A stretch of DNA of 64,000 nt from Escherichia phage vB_Eco_BCPEco_001: the sequence record PV295200.1. The stretch is one strand, 5' to 3'. The position numbers and the translations under genes were made by a program. Of the stretch, positions 1 to 9,012 are shown piece after piece. Position 1 is the first letter of the stretch. Each line of letters begins with the position of its first letter. The notes beneath the pieces were generated by a model. The model searched no databases and had not been told where the DNA came from. It saw only the letters and a list, made by a program, of their open reading frames with translations.

Positions 1-1
1 A

Positions 2-406
2 TTATGGGAAAATGCTCGTTCAAAAAATCTCTATAAATTTAAAGAAGTAATTGATGTTGATTTAAAAATTGTAGGAATTTATCCTCACCGTAAAGACCCT
101 ACTAAAGCAGGTGGATTTATTCTTGAGTCAGAGTGTGGAAAAATTAAGGTAAATGCTGGTTCAGGCTTAAAAGATAAAGCCGGTGTAAAATCACATGAAC
201 TTGACCGTACTCGCATTATGGAAAACCAAAATTATTATATTGGAAAAATTCTAGAGTGCGAATGCAACGGTTGGTTAAAATCCGATGGCCGCACTGATTA
301 CGTTAAATTATTTCTTCCGATTGCGATTCGTTTACGCGAAGATAAAACTAAAGCTAATACGTTCGAAGATGTATTTGGTGATTTTCATGAGGTAACTGGT
401 TTATGA
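2..406 (+). CDS. 30: DNA ligase (gp30), C-terminal fragment; 5' end lies outside window
   Basis: Open frame from window edge; translation ...VDLKIVGIYPHRKDPTKAGGFILESECGKIKVNAGSGLKDKAGVKSHELDRTRIMENQNYYIGKILECE...FGDFHEVTGL matches recalled T4 DNA ligase C-terminus. Confidence 0.85.
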   Translation, partial: LWENARSKNLYKFKEVIDVDLKIVGIYPHRKDPTKAGGFILESECGKIKVNAGSGLKDKAGVKSHELDRTRIMENQNYYIGKILECECNGWLKSDGRTDYVKLFLPIAIRLREDKTKANTFEDVFGDFHEVTGL

Positions 407-591
407 AAGCTTACTTAGAAACAATTGTCGTGGCTCAAAAAGAAGGTGGAGATGTTTCTACTTCTGTATCACAAATCATGATTGAATTTATCGATGCATA
501 TGCTTATAATAAATTCACAGAAACTTTTGATGCTTATGAAAAAGGTCCAAAGTTTGAAATATATCGTACTCTCTTACCTATAGATTATTAA
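403..591 (+). CDS. hypothetical small protein (62 aa) between ligase and alt
   Basis: ORF overlapping ligase stop (ATGA), followed by hairpin terminator; no recognisable motif. Confidence 0.45.
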   Translation: MKAYLETIVVAQKEGGDVSTSVSQIMIEFIDAYAYNKFTETFDAYEKGPKFEIYRTLLPIDY

Positions 592-610
592 AGGCCTTCG
601 GGCCTTTAAT
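590..610 (+). terminator. hairpin terminator
   Basis: AGGCC-TTCG-GGCCT stem-loop followed by T-rich run. Confidence 0.55.
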
Positions 611-612
611 TT

Positions 613-620
613 TATAAATA
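613..620 (+). promoter_or_regulatory. T4 late promoter box TATAAATA (alt)
   Basis: Exact TATAAATA 21 bp upstream of alt ATG. Confidence 0.7.
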
Positions 621-640
621 GAATAAACACTAGAGAGGAT

Positions 641-2731
641 ATGATGGAACTCATTACAGAATTATTTGACGAAGATACTACTCTTCCGATTACAAACTTA
701 AATCCAAAGAAGAAAATACCACAAATTTTTTCAGTTCATGTTGATGATGCAATTGAACAACCAGGCTTTCGTTTATGTACCTATACATCTGGAGGTGATA
801 CTAATCGCGATTTAAAGATGGGCGATAAAATGATGCATATTGTTCCTTTTACATTAACTGCTAAAGGTTCAATTGCTAAATTGAAAGGTCTTGGTCCAAG
901 CCCAATTAATTATATCAATTCAGTTTTTACTGTTGCAATGCAAACAATGCGTCAATATAAAATTGATGCCTGTATGCTCCGTATTCTTAAGTCTAAAACC
1001 GCTGGTCAAGCTCGACAAATTCAAGTTATTGCTGATAGACTTATCCGTAGTCGTTCAGGTGGCAGATACGTCCTTCTTAAGGAACTCTGGGATTATGATA
1101 AAAAGTATGCATATATTCTTATACATCGCAAAAATGTATCACTAGAAGACATTCCAGGAGTTCCGGAAATTAGTACTGAGCTCTTTACTAAAGTTGAATC
1201 GAAGGTCGGTGATGTTTATATCAATAAAGATACTGGAGCTCAAGTAACTAAAAATGAGGCAATTGCAGCATCTATTGCACAAGAAAATGATAAACGTTCT
1301 GACCAAGCTGTAATTGTTAAAGTTAAAATTTCACGTAGAGCAATTGCGCAAAGTCAATCGTTAGAGTCTTCTAGATTTGAAAGTGAATTATTCCAGAAGT
1401 ATGAATCTACCGCAGCTAATTTCAATAAACCTGCTACCGCTCCTTTAATTCCCGAAGCAGAAGAAATGAAGCTTGGAATTAATTCATTAGCTTCTAAAAC
1501 TAAGGCAGCAAAAATTATTGCCGAAGGAACTGCGAATGAACTTCACTATGACTATAAATTCTTTTCAAAAAGTGAGGTTGATGAAGTTTCTGAAAAAATT
1601 AAAGATGTAATTCTTAACGCAATCAAAAATGAACCAACTACTTCAATAAAATGTTTAGAGAAATACGCAGCAGCTGTTAATAAATTCTTTGAAGAATATA
1701 AAGATAATTGGCTTGATAAACATAATAAAACTCGTAAAGGGCAACCAGATGAAGTCTGGGGAGAAATAACTAAAAATGCCTGGAATGCAGCAAAAACTAA
1801 ATTCCTCAAACGAATGATTTATAGTTTTTCTGGAATTGGTGCTGGTCCAATGATTGATATTACTATTGCCCGTGATGGTTCTAAATATACTCCATCACAA
1901 AAGCGCGGCATTAGAGAATATTGTGGCTCAGGATATACAGACATTAATAATCTTCTTTTAGGTCGTTACAATCCAGAACGATATGATGTAATGAGTGAAA
2001 AAGAAATTGAATCTGCTATAAATAATTTAGATTCAGCTTTTGAAAATGGTGACCGTATACCGGAAGGCATTACAGTTTATCGTGCTCAAAGTATGACTGC
2101 TCCTATATACGAAGCACTAGTTAAAAATAAAGTGTTCTATTTCAGAAATTTTGTATCTACTTCTTTAACTCCTATCATTTTTGGACGTTTTGGAATTACA
2201 CATGCTGGTATTGGTCTTTTAGAACCAGAAGCTCGCAATGAATTAACAGTTGATAAAAATGAAGAAGGAATAACTATTAATCCAAACGAAATAAGAGCGT
2301 ATAAAGAAAATCCTGAATACGTTAAAGTTCAAATAGGATGGGCAATTGATGGAGCTCATAAAGTTAATGTTGTATATCCAGGAAGTCTCGGAATAGCAAC
2401 AGAAGCTGAAGTTATTCTACCGCGCGGATTAATGGTTAAAGTTAATAAAATAACTGATGCTTCTAATAATGACGGAACAACATCTAATAATACAAAACTC
2501 ATTCAAGCTGAAGTTATGACCACAGAAGAACTCACCGAATCGGTAATCTATGACGGAGACCATTTAATGGAAACTGGTGAATTGGTTACAATGACAGGTG
2601 ATATAGAAGATAGAGTTGACTTTGCATCATTTGTTTCATCAAATGTTAAACAGAAAGTAGAATCATCTCTTGGAATTATTGCGTCTTGCATAGATATTAC
2701 AAACATGCCTTACAAGTTCGTTCAAGGATAA
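641..2731 (+). CDS. alt: Alt ADP-ribosyltransferase, packaged head protein (696 aa)
   Basis: N-terminus MELITELFDEDTTLPITNL matches recalled T4 Alt; C-terminal ART motifs (YR, FVSTSL STS motif, EAEVILPRG); late promoter TATAAATA 21 bp upstream. Confidence 0.9.
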   Translation: MMELITELFDEDTTLPITNLNPKKKIPQIFSVHVDDAIEQPGFRLCTYTSGGDTNRDLKMGDKMMHIVPFTLTAKGSIAKLKGLGPSPINYINSVFTVAMQTMRQYKIDACMLRILKSKTAGQARQIQVIADRLIRSRSGGRYVLLKELWDYDKKYAYILIHRKNVSLEDIPGVPEISTELFTKVESKVGDVYINKDTGAQVTKNEAIAASIAQENDKRSDQAVIVKVKISRRAIAQSQSLESSRFESELFQKYESTAANFNKPATAPLIPEAEEMKLGINSLASKTKAAKIIAEGTANELHYDYKFFSKSEVDEVSEKIKDVILNAIKNEPTTSIKCLEKYAAAVNKFFEEYKDNWLDKHNKTRKGQPDEVWGEITKNAWNAAKTKFLKRMIYSFSGIGAGPMIDITIARDGSKYTPSQKRGIREYCGSGYTDINNLLLGRYNPERYDVMSEKEIESAINNLDSAFENGDRIPEGITVYRAQSMTAPIYEALVKNKVFYFRNFVSTSLTPIIFGRFGITHAGIGLLEPEARNELTVDKNEEGITINPNEIRAYKENPEYVKVQIGWAIDGAHKVNVVYPGSLGIATEAEVILPRGLMVKVNKITDASNNDGTTSNNTKLIQAEVMTTEELTESVIYDGDHLMETGELVTMTGDIEDRVDFASFVSSNVKQKVESSLGIIASCIDITNMPYKFVQG

Positions 2732-2734
2732 ATC

Positions 2735-4792
2735 ATGGAACTTATTACAGAATTATTTGACGGCGCTTCGGCGCCGGTTGTTAACTTAAATCCTAAGCAT
2801 AAAATACCACAAATTTTTGCTATCCAAACCGGCGAAGAAAGCGTGCTTCCTGGATTTAGATTTTGTACATACACCTCTGGTGGTGATACGAATAAAAACG
2901 TTAAGCCAGGCGATAAAATGATGCATATCGTAATGATAGGTGTCAACGAGAAATTATCGCTGGTTAAGCTTAGAAACTTGGGTGGAAATCCAATTGGCGT
3001 CATTAATGCTGTTTTTGATACTGCTCTTCAAACAATGAAGCAGTATAAAATCGACGCATGCTTATTCCGCGTACTAAAAAGTAAAACAAATGGCGCAGCT
3101 CGTCAAATGCAAGTTATTGCTGACCGTTTAGTACGTACTAAAGGAGCAGGTCGATATGTTCTTTTAAAGGAAATCTGGGACTATGATAAAAAGTATGCAT
3201 ATATTATGGTTTACCGTAAAAATGCCAATTTAGAAGACATTCCAGGTGTACCTCCTATTTCAACTGAGTTATTCACAAAAGTTGAATCAAAGGTCGGTGA
3301 TGTTTATGTAGATGTTAAAACAGGTGATGCTGTTCCTAAAGCTGTCGCTGTTGCTGCTTCTATTGCTTTAGAAAATGATAAGCGCACGGATCAAGCTGTT
3401 ATTCAGAAAACTAAAATTAGTCGTCGATTAGCAGCACAAGCTCAATATTCTACTGTTGATGCTTCACTTCAGGGTGATAGCTTCGCTGCTAAGAAATATC
3501 AAGAGTTTGAATCTAAAGTTCCGGTATATAAAGCAGAAGGACCAATGAACTCTGGCGTTATTCAGATTGGTTCAAACTTCAACAAAGGAGCTATCGGTGG
3601 TATGAGAAGTGCTTCTCGTTTTAAATCTAGCGATTATGAACTAGAAAACTTCCGAAATCATATTGCATTAGCCCATGCACGTTTACGTGATCCATCTATC
3701 AAGTTGCAGAGCGATATAACATATCAAGGTTCTCAAGAATATTTAAAGAATAAAGAATTCTTTGATTATAAAACTGATAAAATTTTAAGCGATCTTGCTG
3801 ACATTAATATTTCTAATAGCTTTGATGTTATTAAGAAAATTATCAATGATTTGGTTAAAGGTTCTAATGCTACGCCAGATGAAAAGACAGCTATTATTCA
3901 ATTTGTCATGAATGGCATTTATAAATTGATTAATGAATCTGCTGCTCAGGCATATGAATATGCAAGTACTGAAGTAACTCCAAAAGGACTGACTCAGGCT
4001 GAGTCTGATGTAATTGAAGATTATTGTGCAGATTCATATGTTGAAATGAACTCGTTCCTTTTGGGTAAACCAGATTCTACCCGTGAAGAATATATGGAAC
4101 GAGCTATTAAGCACATCGAGACGTTGGATTCTGCCTTTGCCAAAGGATCAGTTCTTCCTCCAGGAACTACACTTTACCGTGGACAAGAAGTTACCTTTAA
4201 AACTTTGCGTCATAACATTGAAAACAAAATGTTCTATTTCAAGAACTTCGTATCCACATCGCTTAAACCAAATATCTTCGGTGAGCATGGTAAAAACTAT
4301 ATGGCTCTAGATGATTCCGGCGCAGTATTTTCTGGTGAAGGAGAAGGTTCCGTTGATGCAGAAGATTTGATGCATATGGGTAGTCATTCTACATATGCTA
4401 ATGAAGATGCTGAAACTAGCGTGGGTATGGTAATTAAAGGAGCTGAGCGAATCAAAGTTATCGTTCCAGGTCATTTATCAGGATTTCCATCAGAAGCTGA
4501 AGTTATTCTACCGCGTGGAATTTTACTGAAGATTAATAAAGTAAGTACGTACTTTATGAAAGAAACTGCTTATAACAAGTATCTAATCGAAGGTACAATC
4601 GTTCCTCCTTCTGAACAATTAGAAGAATCAGTATATGATGGCGACCATCTAATGGAAACTGGTGAAGTTCGTCCAATGGTTGGATTTAATCAATTCCTTG
4701 TAGAAGAATCAAAAGAAGAGGAAAACGAAGTTTCTCAAATCTTGGCTTCTTTGGTTAACATCAACGGAATGTCTAAAAAGTTCAAAATGTAG
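2735..4792 (+). CDS. Alt-family ADP-ribosyltransferase paralog (685 aa)
   Basis: Shares conserved N-terminal 230 aa and C-terminal ART motifs (TLYRGQ, FVSTSLKP, EAEVILPRG) with upstream alt; central region diverged. Confidence 0.85.
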   Translation: MELITELFDGASAPVVNLNPKHKIPQIFAIQTGEESVLPGFRFCTYTSGGDTNKNVKPGDKMMHIVMIGVNEKLSLVKLRNLGGNPIGVINAVFDTALQTMKQYKIDACLFRVLKSKTNGAARQMQVIADRLVRTKGAGRYVLLKEIWDYDKKYAYIMVYRKNANLEDIPGVPPISTELFTKVESKVGDVYVDVKTGDAVPKAVAVAASIALENDKRTDQAVIQKTKISRRLAAQAQYSTVDASLQGDSFAAKKYQEFESKVPVYKAEGPMNSGVIQIGSNFNKGAIGGMRSASRFKSSDYELENFRNHIALAHARLRDPSIKLQSDITYQGSQEYLKNKEFFDYKTDKILSDLADINISNSFDVIKKIINDLVKGSNATPDEKTAIIQFVMNGIYKLINESAAQAYEYASTEVTPKGLTQAESDVIEDYCADSYVEMNSFLLGKPDSTREEYMERAIKHIETLDSAFAKGSVLPPGTTLYRGQEVTFKTLRHNIENKMFYFKNFVSTSLKPNIFGEHGKNYMALDDSGAVFSGEGEGSVDAEDLMHMGSHSTYANEDAETSVGMVIKGAERIKVIVPGHLSGFPSEAEVILPRGILLKINKVSTYFMKETAYNKYLIEGTIVPPSEQLEESVYDGDHLMETGEVRPMVGFNQFLVEESKEEENEVSQILASLVNINGMSKKFKM

Positions 4793-4821
4793 TTTACAAG
4801 TTCCTTATGTTGTGTTATAGT
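4792..4821 (+). promoter_or_regulatory. early promoter (GTTTAC -35, TTATAG -10)
   Basis: GTTTAC, 17-bp spacer, TG-extended -10 region, about 30 bp upstream of ORF 4853. Confidence 0.5.
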
Positions 4822-4852
4822 AGTCTTACTGACATAACATGAGGAACACAAA

Positions 4853-5143
4853 ATGAAATCTTCTTTGCGCTTTTTAGGTCAAGAACTTGTAGTTGAAGGC
4901 GTTATTCCTGCTGATAACGTTTTTAATGAAGCAGTTTACGATGAATTTATCAAAATTTTTGGAACAGATAAAAAGTTCGGAATTTTTCCTTCTGAAAATT
5001 TTTCAAAGCCAGAACAGACTGAAAGTATTTTTCAGGGTGTAGTAACAGGTAAATTTGAGTCAGAAGCTCCGGTAAAAATTGAAGTTTATATTGAAGACAG
5101 TTTAGTTGCTTCAGTTGCTGCTTTCATTTCATTCCGTAAATAA
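4853..5143 (+). CDS. hypothetical protein (96 aa), alt-downstream small ORF
   Basis: ORF with early-type promoter upstream and bidirectional hairpin downstream. Confidence 0.5.
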   Translation: MKSSLRFLGQELVVEGVIPADNVFNEAVYDEFIKIFGTDKKFGIFPSENFSKPEQTESIFQGVVTGKFESEAPVKIEVYIEDSLVASVAAFISFRK

Positions 5144-5149
5144 AAATAT

Positions 5150-5167
5150 GGGGACCGAAAGGTCCCC
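5150..5167. terminator. bidirectional hairpin between convergent genes
   Basis: GGGGACC-GAAA-GGTCCCC between + strand ORF 4853 and minus strand gp54. Confidence 0.6.
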
Positions 5168-5171
5168 ATTG

Positions 5172-6137
5172 TTATATTGCTCCTAATATTTTACTCTGCG
5201 AATTGACAATTCCTGTCATAGTATTAATGTTTGAAATGCTTCCTGCAGTTCCCCCTAATCTACTGAGTCGTGAAAGCGAATTAGATAGTCCAGTAACACC
5301 TCCACTATTTCCGAGAACGCTTTGAATACCATTTATAGCAGCAGATTCAAGCCATTCAAGCGCAGCTTGTCTATCAACTGCTCCAGCCTGCATGACTCTA
5401 TACGCAAAAGTAACATCAAATGTAGTTATTTGGTTATCTCCATCATATGATAATTCAGGAGCGCTCACTGACACTGGAATGCATCCGATGAACATTACCG
5501 CAGTATGAGGTAATCCATTGCGAGAATGAAGATTAACCTGAATATCTGCCTCGACATCTTGCGGCAAAGCACGCAATCCAGTTACTGGGTCTTGAACAGA
5601 GTTAACCCAGTCTTGCATTGCACGATAGTTACAAGCTTCTGAATCCATTCTAAATGAAATAACCAAAGGGTCTAATTCTCTTCCGGTTATACGAATATTA
5701 GGAGAATTATAGTTCCAGTCAGTTTCATAGGATAATCTATTCTCTGGCATTTTTACAGAATATATCATCAATCCAGATGAGTTATATGCCATGTTAAAGA
5801 AGTCAATTAAATATGTACCAACTGTAAATGAGCCCAATAAACTTTGAACTGTACGTTGACTCATGGCACCAATAAGATATTTACTAACCCCTGATTTTCT
5901 TATCAGTTTTTGTGTGCCAGCTGTAATTAGCGTGGTAATTCCCTGATTAATATCACCTTGAGTTAATCCTAGCCAATCTGAATTTAGGCCCAAGTTATTA
6001 TAAGAAAAGTTGCTAATTGAACTTATCAACGAAGAGCTTTTAGTTGATGGAGTTGTTGCAAAAACGCAGCTAAACATATTATTACGTTGGAAATCTGCGT
6101 TTATTGCTTGATTATTAAATTCCTCTAAAGAATACAT
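5172..6137 (-). CDS. 54: baseplate tail tube initiator gp54
   Basis: 321 aa, position upstream of 48-29 block as in T4; size matches gp54. Confidence 0.85.
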   Translation of the reverse strand: MYSLEEFNNQAINADFQRNNMFSCVFATTPSTKSSSLISSISNFSYNNLGLNSDWLGLTQGDINQGITTLITAGTQKLIRKSGVSKYLIGAMSQRTVQSLLGSFTVGTYLIDFFNMAYNSSGLMIYSVKMPENRLSYETDWNYNSPNIRITGRELDPLVISFRMDSEACNYRAMQDWVNSVQDPVTGLRALPQDVEADIQVNLHSRNGLPHTAVMFIGCIPVSVSAPELSYDGDNQITTFDVTFAYRVMQAGAVDRQAALEWLESAAINGIQSVLGNSGGVTGLSNSLSRLSRLGGTAGSISNINTMTGIVNSQSKILGAI

Positions 6138-7231
6138 TAAAAAGTCCCCGCATATAAAGAAGCACGGTTTAACGTGATAATTTCTCTCATAGTAATCTCG
6201 AGAGTAAATGTACTAGGGAGGTTTGGAGCAATAGCTAATCCGTTAAAGTTACCATTAGGTGTTTTATCAAATCTGATGCTTTGTATTTGGCATGGGCCAA
6301 ATATTTCCGTTTTTCCATCAAACTTAGATGTTGCACCAAAGTTTTTCACCATCCAAATTGTCGGGTTTGAAACTACTAGAACGTTAGTTAAACTCGATGT
6401 CATTTTCTCAAATAGTGTTTTATTTTTAGCTGCGTCTTCTGGAGATAAAGGTTCAATTAACGTAGAACGATACCAATCATCTAAATACCCCTTTATTTCA
6501 GCAGCATATTGAGATTTACCCGTTTCACCATAAGAAAAATAGTTAAAATATTGATAGATATTAATAATAGCCATTAAATCTTCTGTTGAACGTGGAGTCA
6601 AATCCCATGTAAACACTTTAGTTCTATTTTCAGCACCACCATACATACTTCTGGCTGTCGTATAAATCTGTTCATTATTATCAGCCATTATACCTTGTGT
6701 TATACTTTCCAGTGCCCCAAATACTGCGGTTGAAGCAATATTACTTAGCACACCAGTAGCAGTACCTCCGCCTCTGCTGATAAGACTTTCTTGAACATCA
6801 TTAAATCTATGTGATGATGTATCAACATCAGATTTAGATCTCGGTAAAAGAATGTTTGCGACAGGAGCTTTACTTATTGTTCCTGAATTATTGTTTGATA
6901 TTAATCCATTTGATAGTTTTGATACTGTACTACTAATAGTGTTTCTTGCTGTACTTAAAATACTCGAAGATGAAGAAGAGTAGTTAGATCTCATCGATCT
7001 AAGACTTCCAGAATCCCTAGATGACATATTGTATGCAGTAAATAATAATCCATTCTTATACAGATCTGTTACCTGGAAGTCCCCTGTAGTGTCATTACCA
7101 CTAGCACGCCCAGTTGGAAACTGGGCTGTGTATGTTTTAGTTCCTACTTCTGATTTAGTACTCTGTCCGGCTGAAATTTTCTCACCGGACTTTTTAATTA
7201 AATCAGCAGTTATTTCTTTAACAATTGCCAT
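6137..7231 (-). CDS. 48: baseplate tail tube cap gp48
   Basis: 364 aa, synteny 54-48-29, size matches T4 gp48. Confidence 0.85.
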   Translation of the reverse strand: MAIVKEITADLIKKSGEKISAGQSTKSEVGTKTYTAQFPTGRASGNDTTGDFQVTDLYKNGLLFTAYNMSSRDSGSLRSMRSNYSSSSSSILSTARNTISSTVSKLSNGLISNNNSGTISKAPVANILLPRSKSDVDTSSHRFNDVQESLISRGGGTATGVLSNIASTAVFGALESITQGIMADNNEQIYTTARSMYGGAENRTKVFTWDLTPRSTEDLMAIINIYQYFNYFSYGETGKSQYAAEIKGYLDDWYRSTLIEPLSPEDAAKNKTLFEKMTSSLTNVLVVSNPTIWMVKNFGATSKFDGKTEIFGPCQIQSIRFDKTPNGNFNGLAIAPNLPSTFTLEITMREIITLNRASLYAGTF

Positions 7232-7239
7232 ATTATTCC

Positions 7240-9012
7240 TTAATTAACTCCAGTCGCATCAAATACACCAGGAGCAGTCGTGCTCGTTACGGGTGTCATA
7301 TTATGAACGACAGTATTTTTCTTAATAACATTATTAGTATTATTGATCGAAGGAGATGCTTGTTGAACAGGAGCTTGCTGTGCTTTATTCTTTTCTATTA
7401 CCTGGACTTGTTTTGCTTCTGGTGATTTAGCAGAAGTTTCAGGTTTGGCATTAGGCTGATTTTTCTTGAGCTCTTGATAAGTAGCATCAATTTTAGAAAA
7501 TCTAGCAGCAAGTTCTTTTTTAACTGCTGGTGAATTATTTAAATCCGGGTCATCCATCCGTTTTTTAAGGTCTTCATAGGCAGATTCAACTGATTTAACT
7601 GTTGAGTCTTTACTCATATCAGCTGAATCGGCATATTTTTCAAAACGAATCATCGCGGCACGTGCTTCATTAGCCTTCATTAAAGCATTTTTTCTTTCTT
7701 CAGGTGAAAGCTGCTTTAATTTTTCTTCTTCTGCTGCACGTTCTTCGTCGGTAGTTAGTGCTTCTTTATTATCAACGCCACGAATCCAGTTAGATGCACG
7801 AGTTTTCCAATTAGCAATTTTATCTAATCCTTTTGCTATCGGACCAAGGTCTCCATTCATTCGTTTATCTTGATAATTTGCAACTTTTTCCTGGTCTTCT
7901 TTATTGAGAGATGCTCCAGTAGAATTTTGGAAATTTTCCAGCGCTCTTCCTTCTACTTCATCAGCGGTATCCTTCATACCAGGAATGACTCGAAGAATTG
8001 CAGCAGATAATTTAGCCATACCTAATTGAATAAGCTCTCCTAAATTAAAAAGAACACTTCCGAGTCCTTCTACGATAGCTGCTGTCAATCCACCCCAATC
8101 TCCCGCTTCCCAAAGTTGTTTAATTTTATCAATAGAATCAAAGATGCTCTGTAATAAAGGACCCCAAGTTCCGGTTTCGCTAGAGAATTTAGTAAAGTCA
8201 GTATTAAATAAATCCCAGGCTTTTGAAAATTTATCTGACCAATATTTAAAGTGAACCATCAGCAGATCTATTCCAACAACAACAGCCAATATCATTGCAG
8301 TCATTTTAGCGGCTTCAATAGCAGCACTGATGGTGTACTTAAATAACATGCTTGATATTTTATCACTAATTGAAATGGATTTCTTAAATCCAAAATCAAC
8401 AGTCTTTGTTAATTTATCTAAAGCTTGAGATAATTTTAAGTTAAATGCTTCTTTTTTCTGTTTTTCTTCTGGTGATTCTTGTTTGGGTTCAACTGGCTGA
8501 GGGGTAGGGAAAAAATCAGCGTCAGGATCATTATTAACTGCTTCAGGAGCTGGTAATAAAGGACCCACAGATTCAGCAGTATCATCCTCAACGACTTTAA
8601 CAGGAATAGCGCTTTCAACAGTGGCTAAACTAGTTCCAGTCTGTTGAATTCCAGCTGTCTGGATTTTTTGCTCTAATAAACTTGTTAATTTATCTAATTT
8701 GCTTCCGAGCGATTCACCGATTTCTTTATTAATATTATTGCCAATTTCGACAGTTTCAGCAATTAACTCAGAACCAGCAGTAGTATCACTCACTGCACTT
8801 TCTACATTGTCAATTGCTCCAATTATTTCATTCGATTTTTCTTCGACAGTTTGAGCTATTAATTCAGAAGCAGCTTGAGCATCATCCAATTTCGTAGATA
8901 TATCATTAAGTCCAGATAAAGTGTTAGAAGCGGATTTAGCCGCTTCCTGTGTTGGTTTATTATCTGAAATAACTTTTCTACGCATCGTTTGCATTTCTTG
9001 TGGCTTTTTCAT
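7240..9012 (-). CDS. 29: tail tube tape measure / baseplate hub protein gp29
   Basis: 590 aa, extended low-complexity helical protein, synteny and size match T4 gp29. Confidence 0.85.
   Translation of the reverse strand: MKKPQEMQTMRRKVISDNKPTQEAAKSASNTLSGLNDISTKLDDAQAASELIAQTVEEKSNEIIGAIDNVESAVSDTTAGSELIAETVEIGNNINKEIGESLGSKLDKLTSLLEQKIQTAGIQQTGTSLATVESAIPVKVVEDDTAESVGPLLPAPEAVNNDPDADFFPTPQPVEPKQESPEEKQKKEAFNLKLSQALDKLTKTVDFGFKKSISISDKISSMLFKYTISAAIEAAKMTAMILAVVVGIDLLMVHFKYWSDKFSKAWDLFNTDFTKFSSETGTWGPLLQSIFDSIDKIKQLWEAGDWGGLTAAIVEGLGSVLFNLGELIQLGMAKLSAAILRVIPGMKDTADEVEGRALENFQNSTGASLNKEDQEKVANYQDKRMNGDLGPIAKGLDKIANWKTRASNWIRGVDNKEALTTDEERAAEEEKLKQLSPEERKNALMKANEARAAMIRFEKYADSADMSKDSTVKSVESAYEDLKKRMDDPDLNNSPAVKKELAARFSKIDATYQELKKNQPNAKPETSAKSPEAKQVQVIEKNKAQQAPVQQASPSINNTNNVIKKNTVVHNMTPVTSTTAPGVFDATGVN

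Follow-up and report, generated by a model that had tools for sequence, protein, structure and literature searches.

Escherichia phage vB_Eco_BCPEco_001 carries the ordinary two-gene alt locus of Tequatrovirus, whose second ADP-ribosyltransferase gene survives in T4 as a deletion remnant

Introduction

Packaged Alt is set apart from ModA and ModB, the small (~200 residues) non-packaged ADP-ribosyltransferases (ARTs), by its Alt domain and its propeptide and cleavage features. Alt biochemistry, on Arg265 of the RNA polymerase α subunit and on other targets, has been done on the T4 allele, and T2 is also known to "alter" RNA polymerase. T4 Alt ADP-ribosylates Arg265 in the reaction called "alteration" (PMC9503650); NAD-dependent ADP-ribosylation by the T4 allele has been assayed and is lost in the E577A variant (PMC11404850). 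The prohead protease gp21 cuts T4 Alt after ITE-6 and LTE-619 to leave a mature protein of 68.2 kDa (mass spectrometry; PMC5694885), and alt is non-essential in T4 (PMC9026906). The T2 alt sequence is that of Koch & Ruger (1994, Virology 203:294, cited in PMC11404850), and the existence of paralogous alt copies among T4-like phages was noted in 2006 by Nolan et al. (PMC1524935). Here we analyze the alt locus of Escherichia phage vB_Eco_BCPEco_001, which lies near the left end of a 64,000-nucleotide stretch of record PV295200.1 (the window, numbered from its first letter) and holds two consecutive alt genes, Alt1 and Alt2.

An earlier note, made from the sequence alone, placed two consecutive full-length Alt-family open reading frames (ORFs) at 641-2731 (696 residues) and 2735-4792 (685 residues). 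The placement is correct. The note also presented the pair as unusual and as a diversifying duplication, with only one alt in T4, and it is on these points that comparison with other phages leads to a different picture.

Results

The Alt1-Alt2 pair in other phages

The window phage is a Tequatrovirus and its locus is the standard two-gene alt locus of that genus. The first 5.2 kb of the window are 99.9% identical to Shigella phage vB_Shso_BCPShso_001 and Salmonella phage vB_Sen_BCPSen_003 and 97.9% identical to T2, and the gene order is lig - alt.1 - Alt1 - Alt2 - alt.-3 - gene 54, with the Alt genes between DNA ligase/alt.1 and alt.-3/gene 54 as in the T4 Alt family. Megablast matches to Alt2 were found in 497 phage records, 401 of which contain it at full length (at least 80% coverage), and window positions 1-5200 are covered to at least 80% at one place in 393. 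A full-length Alt2 beside Alt is thus present in about 400 of the ~500 matching Tequatrovirus records, and the view of the pair as unusual falls. Two ADP-ribosyltransferases are annotated in T2, RB32, RB33, many BASEL phages and others, and RefSeq names both genes "Alt-like RNA polymerase ADP-ribosyltransferase". RB32 "alt.-2" (YP_803136) is Alt2, with 98% nucleotide identity, 685 residues, the same position and no material difference. The Alt1-Alt2 pair is an ordinary, already annotated feature of the genus and is not new.

More widely, the N-terminal Alt domain occurs at 1,819 places in 1,201 phage records, typically at two places in Tequatroviruses and at three in some others. Dhakavirus QL01 (KT176190), for example, has three tandem full-length Alts of 694, 681 and 707 residues (retrieved stretch L006, 5995-12255), called QL01_a, QL01_b and QL01_c here. 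They occupy the same locus (lig - alt.1 - Alts - alt.-3 - 54) and all three have the catalytic and cleavage motifs; the difference is one of number, three genes against two, the middle QL01_b having no counterpart in the window. The Alts of this Dhakavirus array are of the JS10 type.

T4 carries the remnant of Alt2

The match of T4 to Alt2 is restricted to the first 348 nucleotides (93.7% identity) and falls at alt.-1/alt.-2 (NP_049810, NP_049809; reverse complement of NC_000866, positions 4001-4386 of the retrieved stretch L001). Pairwise alignment reveals two lesions. At window positions 2894-2898 a run of five A residues is reduced to four in T4, a frameshift that parts alt.-1 from alt.-2, and 1,699 bp, bounded exactly by two copies of the 9-nucleotide repeat CTAAAAAGT, have been deleted, so that codons from ~115 to the end are missing. 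The T4-type deletion junction is present in 91 phage records. Two families of ~60 residues, phrog_23015 and phrog_15247, match the parts of Alt2 that survive in T4 and match Alt2 far better than Alt1 (1e-39 vs 1e-21); the PHROG library gives them no names, and we equated them with T4 alt.-1/alt.-2 by length and matched position.

T4 alt.-1/alt.-2 is a deletion remnant of a full-length Alt2, and the T4 state is derived. The T4 GenBank note describes alt.-1/alt.-2 as "an old duplication of the first part of gene alt", whereas our comparison shows remnants instead, and the RB32 note of an "apparent insertion in alt.-2" has the opposite polarity to the deletion in T4 that we find. T4 has a single alt, then, because it lost the other alt gene. 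A single alt in T4 is right for functional genes; the earlier note had named a tandem pair in T4 itself as evidence against its own reading, and with the remnant counted this is half the case.

Two full-length Alt proteins with diverged centers

The pairwise alignment that had been proposed as a check gives 41% identity between Alt1 and Alt2 end to end (BLASTP, E=8e-159), far beyond chance. Each protein is about 77 kDa, matches PHROG 802 "Alt-like RNA polymerase ADP-ribosyltransferase" over its full length and has the plan of the T4 Alt family (N-terminal Alt domain, center and ART domain in ~600-710 residues); NCBIfam had no model for either. Alt2 is about 42% identical to T4 Alt overall. The domain plan (Table 1) was drawn from alignment with T4 Alt and RB32, from windowed identities and from an AlphaFold (AF2) model made for Alt2 only (mean pLDDT 73.9). 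All of the shared motifs listed earlier (MELITELFD, GDKMMHIV, KQYKIDAC, WDYDKKYAYI, YR, FVSTSL and EAEVILPRG) are found. The conserved ART core described with them is conserved at its motifs and not more widely, identity outside the motifs being 35-45%. The central divergence is likewise real, and its strongly diverged part extends over about 180 residues rather than the 250 given. In the model a low-confidence linker (residues 226-242, pLDDT below 50) leads from the end of the Alt2 N-terminal domain into the center, a region with 44% identity to QL01_c vs 9-14% to Alt1 and T4 Alt.

The ART domain and its catalytic residues

Both proteins exceed the PF03496 (ADPrib_exo_Tox) cutoff of 23.4 bits, Alt1 with 128.8 and Alt2 with 71.8 bits, and in both the aromatic-R, S-T-S and E-x-E motifs occur in the correct order. 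The catalytic residues of Alt1 are R480 (2081-2083), S505-T-S507 (2156-2164) and E587-A-E589 (2402-2410), and those of Alt2 are R482 (4178-4180), S507-T-S509 (4253-4261) and E587-A-E589 (4493-4501); they are invariant in 20 homologues. A second ORF without catalytic residues, which would have spoken against a pair of enzymes, is accordingly not what is found. E-x-E is the signature of arginine-specific mono-ADP-ribosyltransferases in the C3/VIP2-like clade, and T4 Alt is arginine-specific. Its Glu577, numbered from an upstream ATG that is also present in T4, is the second glutamate of E-x-E.

The predicted Alt2 ART fold (pLDDT ~65-91) has as its best Foldseek matches in the PDB Vis, C3bot, CDTa, VIP2 and Certhrax, with E values of 3e-7 to 1e-4 and target-normalized TM scores of ~0.6. 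By motifs and, for Alt2, predicted fold we place Alt1 and Alt2 in the R-S-E clade of C3/VIP2-like ADP-ribosyltransferases. No Alt structure is available in the PDB; the matches there were weak, to CDTa and iota toxin, and confined to the ~70-residue helical start of the ART domain. With C3 exoenzyme, VIP2, iota/CDTa and Vis the Alt proteins have the catalytic fold and motifs in common at 14-20% identity; the Alt segment from STS to ExE is ~40 residues longer than in C3, and the toxins are without the phage-specific N-terminal and central domains and without the two propeptides removed by protease. Between Alt1 and Alt2 the STS-to-ExE insert is of unequal length and 10-30% identical, and the ARTT-loop residue four positions before E-x-E is Phe in Alt2, Ile in Alt1 and Pro in T4 Alt.

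Prohead-protease motifs

Residues 7-619 of T4 Alt have a computed mass of 68.2 kDa, in agreement with the published value. At both aligned cut positions Alt1 (ITE-6 and LTE-632) and Alt2 (ITE-6 and LEE-631) carry (L/I)-x-E, as do all three QL01 paralogs, so that in Alt1 and Alt2 the gp21 motif is present, as a sequence motif, at residue 6 and ~55-63 residues from the C-terminus. The predicted mature sizes are 70.1 kDa for Alt1 and 69.2 kDa for Alt2. Since Alt2 retains the N-terminal Alt domain as well as the motifs at both prohead-protease sites, we propose that it is most likely a packaged, processed head protein.

At the start of the Alt2 propeptide E631, Y634, D635, G636, D637, E641, G643 and E644 are invariant in the 20 homologues. 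The stretch SV(I)YDGDxLMETGE (2540-2580 and 4628-4666) directly follows the C-terminal protease site and belongs to the portion that mature T4 Alt lacks. Few parts of the family other than the active site are as well conserved between genera. This hints that the C-terminal propeptide may have a function of its own, e.g. in targeting, protease docking or auto-inhibition.

Age of the duplication and selection on the two genes

Synonymous divergence (dS, Nei-Gojobori) between Alt1 and Alt2 is ~1.4 in the N-terminal, central and ART domains and 0.94 in the C-terminal tail. Because it is ~1.4 even in the well-conserved N-terminal domain, we take the duplication to be old and not recently homogenized in the window genome. 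Against orthologues from four other phages the ratio of nonsynonymous to synonymous divergence (dN/dS) of Alt2 is 0.016-0.15 in the N-terminal, central and ART domains and 0.08-0.48 in the tail, and Alt1 shows the same pattern. Alt2 is, by this measure, a maintained gene under strong purifying selection and not a decaying copy. A pseudogene remnant like T4 alt.-1/alt.-2, which we considered for Alt2, does not agree with an intact 685-residue ORF of low dN/dS, nor does a recent duplication under diversifying selection agree with saturated paralog dS and low orthologue dN/dS. The description of a "diversifying" duplicate is thus not upheld: the paralogs diverged anciently, their dN/dS is low (0.02-0.15) and they have counterparts in another genus.

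These counterparts are QL01_a, which pairs with Alt1 (ART domain 96% amino acid identity, center 67%), and QL01_c, which pairs with Alt2 (ART domain 59%, center 44%, tail 66%). The N-terminal domains, in contrast, fall together by genus: identity is 68% in Tequatrovirus and 67-89% in QL01, and 42-46% from one to the other. We conclude from the pairings that the duplication predates the Tequatrovirus/Dhakavirus split. The different grouping of the N-terminal domains is explained either by homogenization or co-evolution of these domains inside each genome or by passage of effector cassettes from one genus to another. The Alt1 ART domain (1883-2539) and that of QL01_a (L006 ~7230-7890), 96% identical in amino acids, have a dS of only 0.52, against 46% identity and saturated dS for the adjacent N-terminal domains. 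The cassette may thus have passed between the genera comparatively recently, or be under unusual constraint.

Alt1 carries a different effector allele from T4 Alt, and chimeric loci occur

T4 Alt (gpAlt, NP_049811, 682 residues) and Alt1 agree in locus, domain order, R/STS/ExE residues, cleavage motifs and late promoter. All but one residue are identical over positions 1-238, and identity is 97-100% at the C-terminal end (from ~650). Between these flanks it drops to 11-36% in the center and to 57-82% by window, or about 66% for the whole domain, in ART, and dS, which is ~0.1 on either side, reaches 1.2-1.4. The divergent cassette covers window positions ~1375-2480 (residues ~245-612). We interpret the central and ART cassette of Alt1 as a different allele from that of T4 Alt, brought in by recombination. 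Alt1 is therefore only in part an orthologue of the biochemically studied T4 Alt, its effector part being a different allele, and with the cassette differences of Alt2 it follows that neither window protein's effector part is the enzyme that was studied.

The T2-type allele (window phage, T2, RB32 and GiZh) is found in 348 records and the T4-type allele (T4, ES19 and U115) in 175, and full-length Alt2 co-occurs with both. T2 Alt (X69893) is the Alt1 allele: the central/ART cassettes are 98% identical in nucleotides, with strain-level differences only.

In three metagenome contigs we found chimeras (P0003, P0005 and P0006) in which an Alt1-type N-terminus passes into Alt2 and the effector is that of Alt2. 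The switch points differ (nucleotides ~150-180, 540 and 660), and each falls where the two genes share a short stretch. L007 and L009 have no alt gene other than the chimera in the interval from alt.1 to alt.-3, and L008 stops directly downstream of its chimera gene. Since Alt1 and Alt2 have no more than 25 consecutive identical nucleotides in common, the chimeras are unlikely to be artefacts of k-mer assembly, least of all that of the k99 contig. The chimeras are probably unequal-crossover deletions in which the Alt2 effector was kept and that of Alt1 lost.

Layout of the locus and the N-terminal domain in other proteins

The window, from a T4-like phage, opens partway through the DNA ligase gene. 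A 62-residue ORF at 218-406 is not a separate gene; it is the C-terminal end of this ligase, the gene running off the left edge, and matches the T4 ligase C-terminus identically. T4 has the same arrangement of hairpin and late promoter ahead of alt as the window, in which the late-promoter motif TATAAATA occurs 25 times against 9.5 expected. The Alt1 ORF opens with two ATG codons (641 and 644) after a Shine-Dalgarno sequence, GAGG, at 635-638. The second is favored as the start, giving a protein that begins MELITE, because of the GAGG spacing and the T4 annotation. Only 3 nucleotides separate the Alt1 stop from the Alt2 start, and translation of Alt2 would begin from a ribosome-binding site, AAGGA, that is still within Alt1, so co-transcription and coupled translation of the two genes are likely. 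A second TATAAATA motif at 2017-2024, inside Alt1 and ~710 nucleotides upstream of the Alt2 start, could give Alt2 a late transcript of its own or be a chance match. Downstream, the promoter-like site just past Alt2 probably serves alt.-3 and marks the end of the Alt1-Alt2 late unit; alt.-3, like alt.1, belongs to a conserved gene family. A bidirectional terminator-like hairpin lies at 5148-5169 between alt.-3 and gene 54. The window ORF list contains no small immunity-like ORF between or after Alt1 and Alt2.

Searched against 1.84 billion representative proteins, the N-terminal domain profile matched only 73 clusters, most of 600-712 residues with the domain at the N-terminus. Ten of the matches were scanned: six have PF03496, four have no Pfam hit and none has another enzyme class. 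At the sequence level this gives no support to the idea that enzymes of varied classes are fused to the domain for delivery. Nor does the locus agree with modular effectors of the polymorphic-toxin kind, in which warheads of different enzyme classes are exchanged behind one delivery module and an immunity gene lies next to them: here cassette exchange is always ART for ART and no immunity gene is adjacent. One match, P0182 (1,142 residues), has two separate N-terminal domain profile matches and no Pfam hit, and could be a tandem Alt, fused or read through, or a protein of another architecture. A Foldseek search of the Alt2 N-terminal domain model (2735-3451) against viral predicted structures returned remote candidate matches (10-16% identity, E 1e-9 to 1e-5) to uncharacterized proteins of 500-1,280 residues from unrelated myoviruses (Erwinia phiEa2809, Dickeya RC-2014, Vibrio VP-1 and Agrobacterium Atu_ph07). 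Some of these targets are named for zeta-toxin, deaminase or ParB domains.

Table 1. Features of the alt locus (window positions unless a contig is named; identities are Alt1 vs Alt2 unless stated; aa, amino acid residues)
Feature	Position	Strand	Description	Evidence or remark
alt.1	403-591		Small flanking gene, family without assigned function	PF24647 "Phage_blade", E=7.5e-29
Hairpin AAAGGCC-TTCG-GGCCTTT and T-run	590-612	+	After alt.1	By eye only, not flagged by scanner
T4 late-promoter motif TATAAATA	613-620	+	23 nt 5' of the Alt1 start at 644	
Alt1	644-2731	+	695 aa; 696 aa from the ATG at 641	PF03496 E=2.1e-37; phrog_802 E=2e-273
Alt1 N-terminal domain, aa 1-238	644-1357	+	Includes MELITE propeptide and I-T-E|L prohead-protease site	
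Alt1 central region, aa 239-413	1358-1882	+	Most diverged part vs both Alt2 and T4 Alt	67% to QL01_a; 14-30% to Alt2 and T4 Alt
Alt1 ART domain	1883-2539	+	To predicted cleavage site L-T-E632	
Alt1 predicted C-terminal propeptide, aa 633-695, and stop	2540-2731	+	Starts SVIYDGDHLMETGE	Aligns with T4 Alt after LTE-619
Alt2	2735-4792	+	685 aa; orthologue of RB32 "alt.-2"	PF03496 E=6.1e-20; phrog_802 E=1.5e-255
Alt2 ribosome-binding site AAGGA	2724-2728	+	Within Alt1 end, 6 nt before Alt2 ATG	
Alt2 N-terminal propeptide, aa 1-6			MELITE	Identical in Alt1 and Alt2
Alt2 N-terminal alpha/beta domain, aa 1-237 (to about 237), with MELITE propeptide	2735-3445	+	68% identity	PF26846 "Tevenvirinae_ADPRT" on orthologues; AF2 pLDDT 83.7, pTM 0.82
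Alt2 linker and all-helical central domain, aa ~245-415	3446-3979	+	14-20% identity; helices 250-414	pLDDT ~75-92; low-confidence linker in model
Alt2 ART domain, aa ~416-631	3980-4627	+	To predicted cleavage site L-E-E631	35-45% identity
Alt2 predicted C-terminal propeptide (tail), aa 632-685, and stop	4628-4792	+	Starts SVYDGDHLMETGE..., SV(I)YDGDHLMETGE	About 40% identity; AF2 disorder over 629-671
Left copy of 9-nt repeat CTAAAAAGT	3074-3082	+	T4-lineage deletion endpoint	
Right copy of 9-nt repeat CTAAAAAGT	4773-4781	+	T4 deletion endpoint	
Early-type sigma-70 promoter-like site TTTACA-17-TATAGT with TG	4793-4821	+	Just past Alt2 stop	Consensus match only
alt.-3	4853-5143		Small flanking gene, family without assigned function	DUF5498, E=8e-64
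Chimera genes	L007 5001-7055; L008 5001-7061; L009 5001-7061		Metagenome contigs	

Discussion

The account that we consider likely is that of a standard two-gene locus in which Alt2 is a second packaged and injected arginine ADP-ribosyltransferase with targets different from those of Alt1. The two genes would be co-transcribed late from one late-promoter motif, and their products would be built into the prohead core via the shared N-terminal and/or C-terminal modules, trimmed by gp21 to about 70 and 69 kDa and injected with the DNA, after which each would mono-ADP-ribosylate arginines of host proteins. Alt1, of the T2 type, would perform the classical "alteration" of RNA polymerase α; it is likely the enzyme that modifies this subunit because Alt1 is the T2 Alt and T2 alters RNA polymerase. 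Alt2 would act on a distinct target set. This last step, which we hold with moderate confidence, is favored because the central domain, the STS-to-ExE insert and the ARTT-loop residue all differ between the two proteins. Altered target specificity had been suggested for the pair as a possibility, and the divergence of the effector parts makes it plausible.

Several points weigh against this account. The synthesis, packaging, cleavage, injection and activity of Alt2 are predicted wholly from features known to matter in T4 Alt. Among the papers that could be searched, none on Alt2 function or virion proteomics was found, only genome-annotation remarks. The Alt2 ART domain scores lower than that of Alt1 on PF03496 (72 vs 129 bits). 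Finally, the T4 lineage, with the deletion in 91 records, thrives without Alt2, and with alt itself non-essential in T4 it follows that any function of Alt2 is conditional.

Of the alternatives, the one that fares best, an unlikely one in our estimate, is that Alt2 is an active ADP-ribosyltransferase that is not injected, and that it acts late in the producing cell in the manner of ModA/ModB or is mainly a structural part of the prohead core. The late promoter context is compatible with this, and T4 Alt has been discussed as a prohead-core protein besides its enzyme role (PMC11404850). Yet the N-terminal Alt domain is complete in Alt2, and the MELITE propeptide and C-terminal cleavage motif are retained, features that set packaged Alt apart from ModA and ModB; moreover, every paralog in both genera has the propeptide motifs.

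Slightly less probable still is that Alt2 is a redundant dosage copy of Alt1, or a duplicate decaying toward a pseudogene like that of T4. Its loss in T4 and 90 other records by frameshift and deletion, the dispensability of alt in T4 (PMC9026906) and the single-gene loci in metagenomic contigs with an Alt1 N-terminus fused to Alt2, by which copy number is not fixed, are what one might expect of such a copy. Those same fusion loci, however, keep the Alt2 effector and lose that of Alt1. The 685-residue ORF is intact in 401 records, its catalytic residues are all invariant, dN/dS is low in all but the C-terminal tail (up to 0.48 there) and a counterpart, QL01_c, is kept in another genus; dosage redundancy is further opposed by ART domains that are 35% identical and central domains that are unrelated. 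An artefact of assembly or annotation, with a repeat collapsed or duplicated in one genome, is an extremely improbable origin of the pair. Hundreds of complete, independent genomes show the same arrangement at 97-100% identity, several separate T2 sequences among them, and no run of identical nucleotides longer than 25 is common to the two paralogs.

A wider form of the two-enzyme account, which we offer tentatively and rate at somewhat short of even, is that most T-even phages inject two different ADP-ribosyltransferases and that Alt2 has targets of its own, possibly a defense or stress-response protein instead of RNA polymerase, that went unnoticed over fifty years because T4 deleted Alt2. 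The alt locus would then be a recombining array of one to three genes. Each genus would have its own head-delivery module, joined to ART effector cassettes that diverged long ago and are swapped, fused and lost between phages. Work on T4 could not have revealed such targets of Alt2.

As a sequence feature the pair changes nothing, being present in hundreds of deposited genomes, named in RefSeq and noted in 2006 (PMC1524935). What the comparison does bring out is that nearly all knowledge of Alt comes from T4, and that T4 is atypical in having both the minority effector allele of the first gene (175 vs 348 records) and a second gene that has been lost. Therefore, the set of host proteins modified at injection by T2, RB32, many therapeutic Tequatroviruses and the window phage is probably different from, and larger than, the set described for T4. 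If Alt2 does have a distinct target, this would be a modest but real addition to the biology of host takeover by phages.

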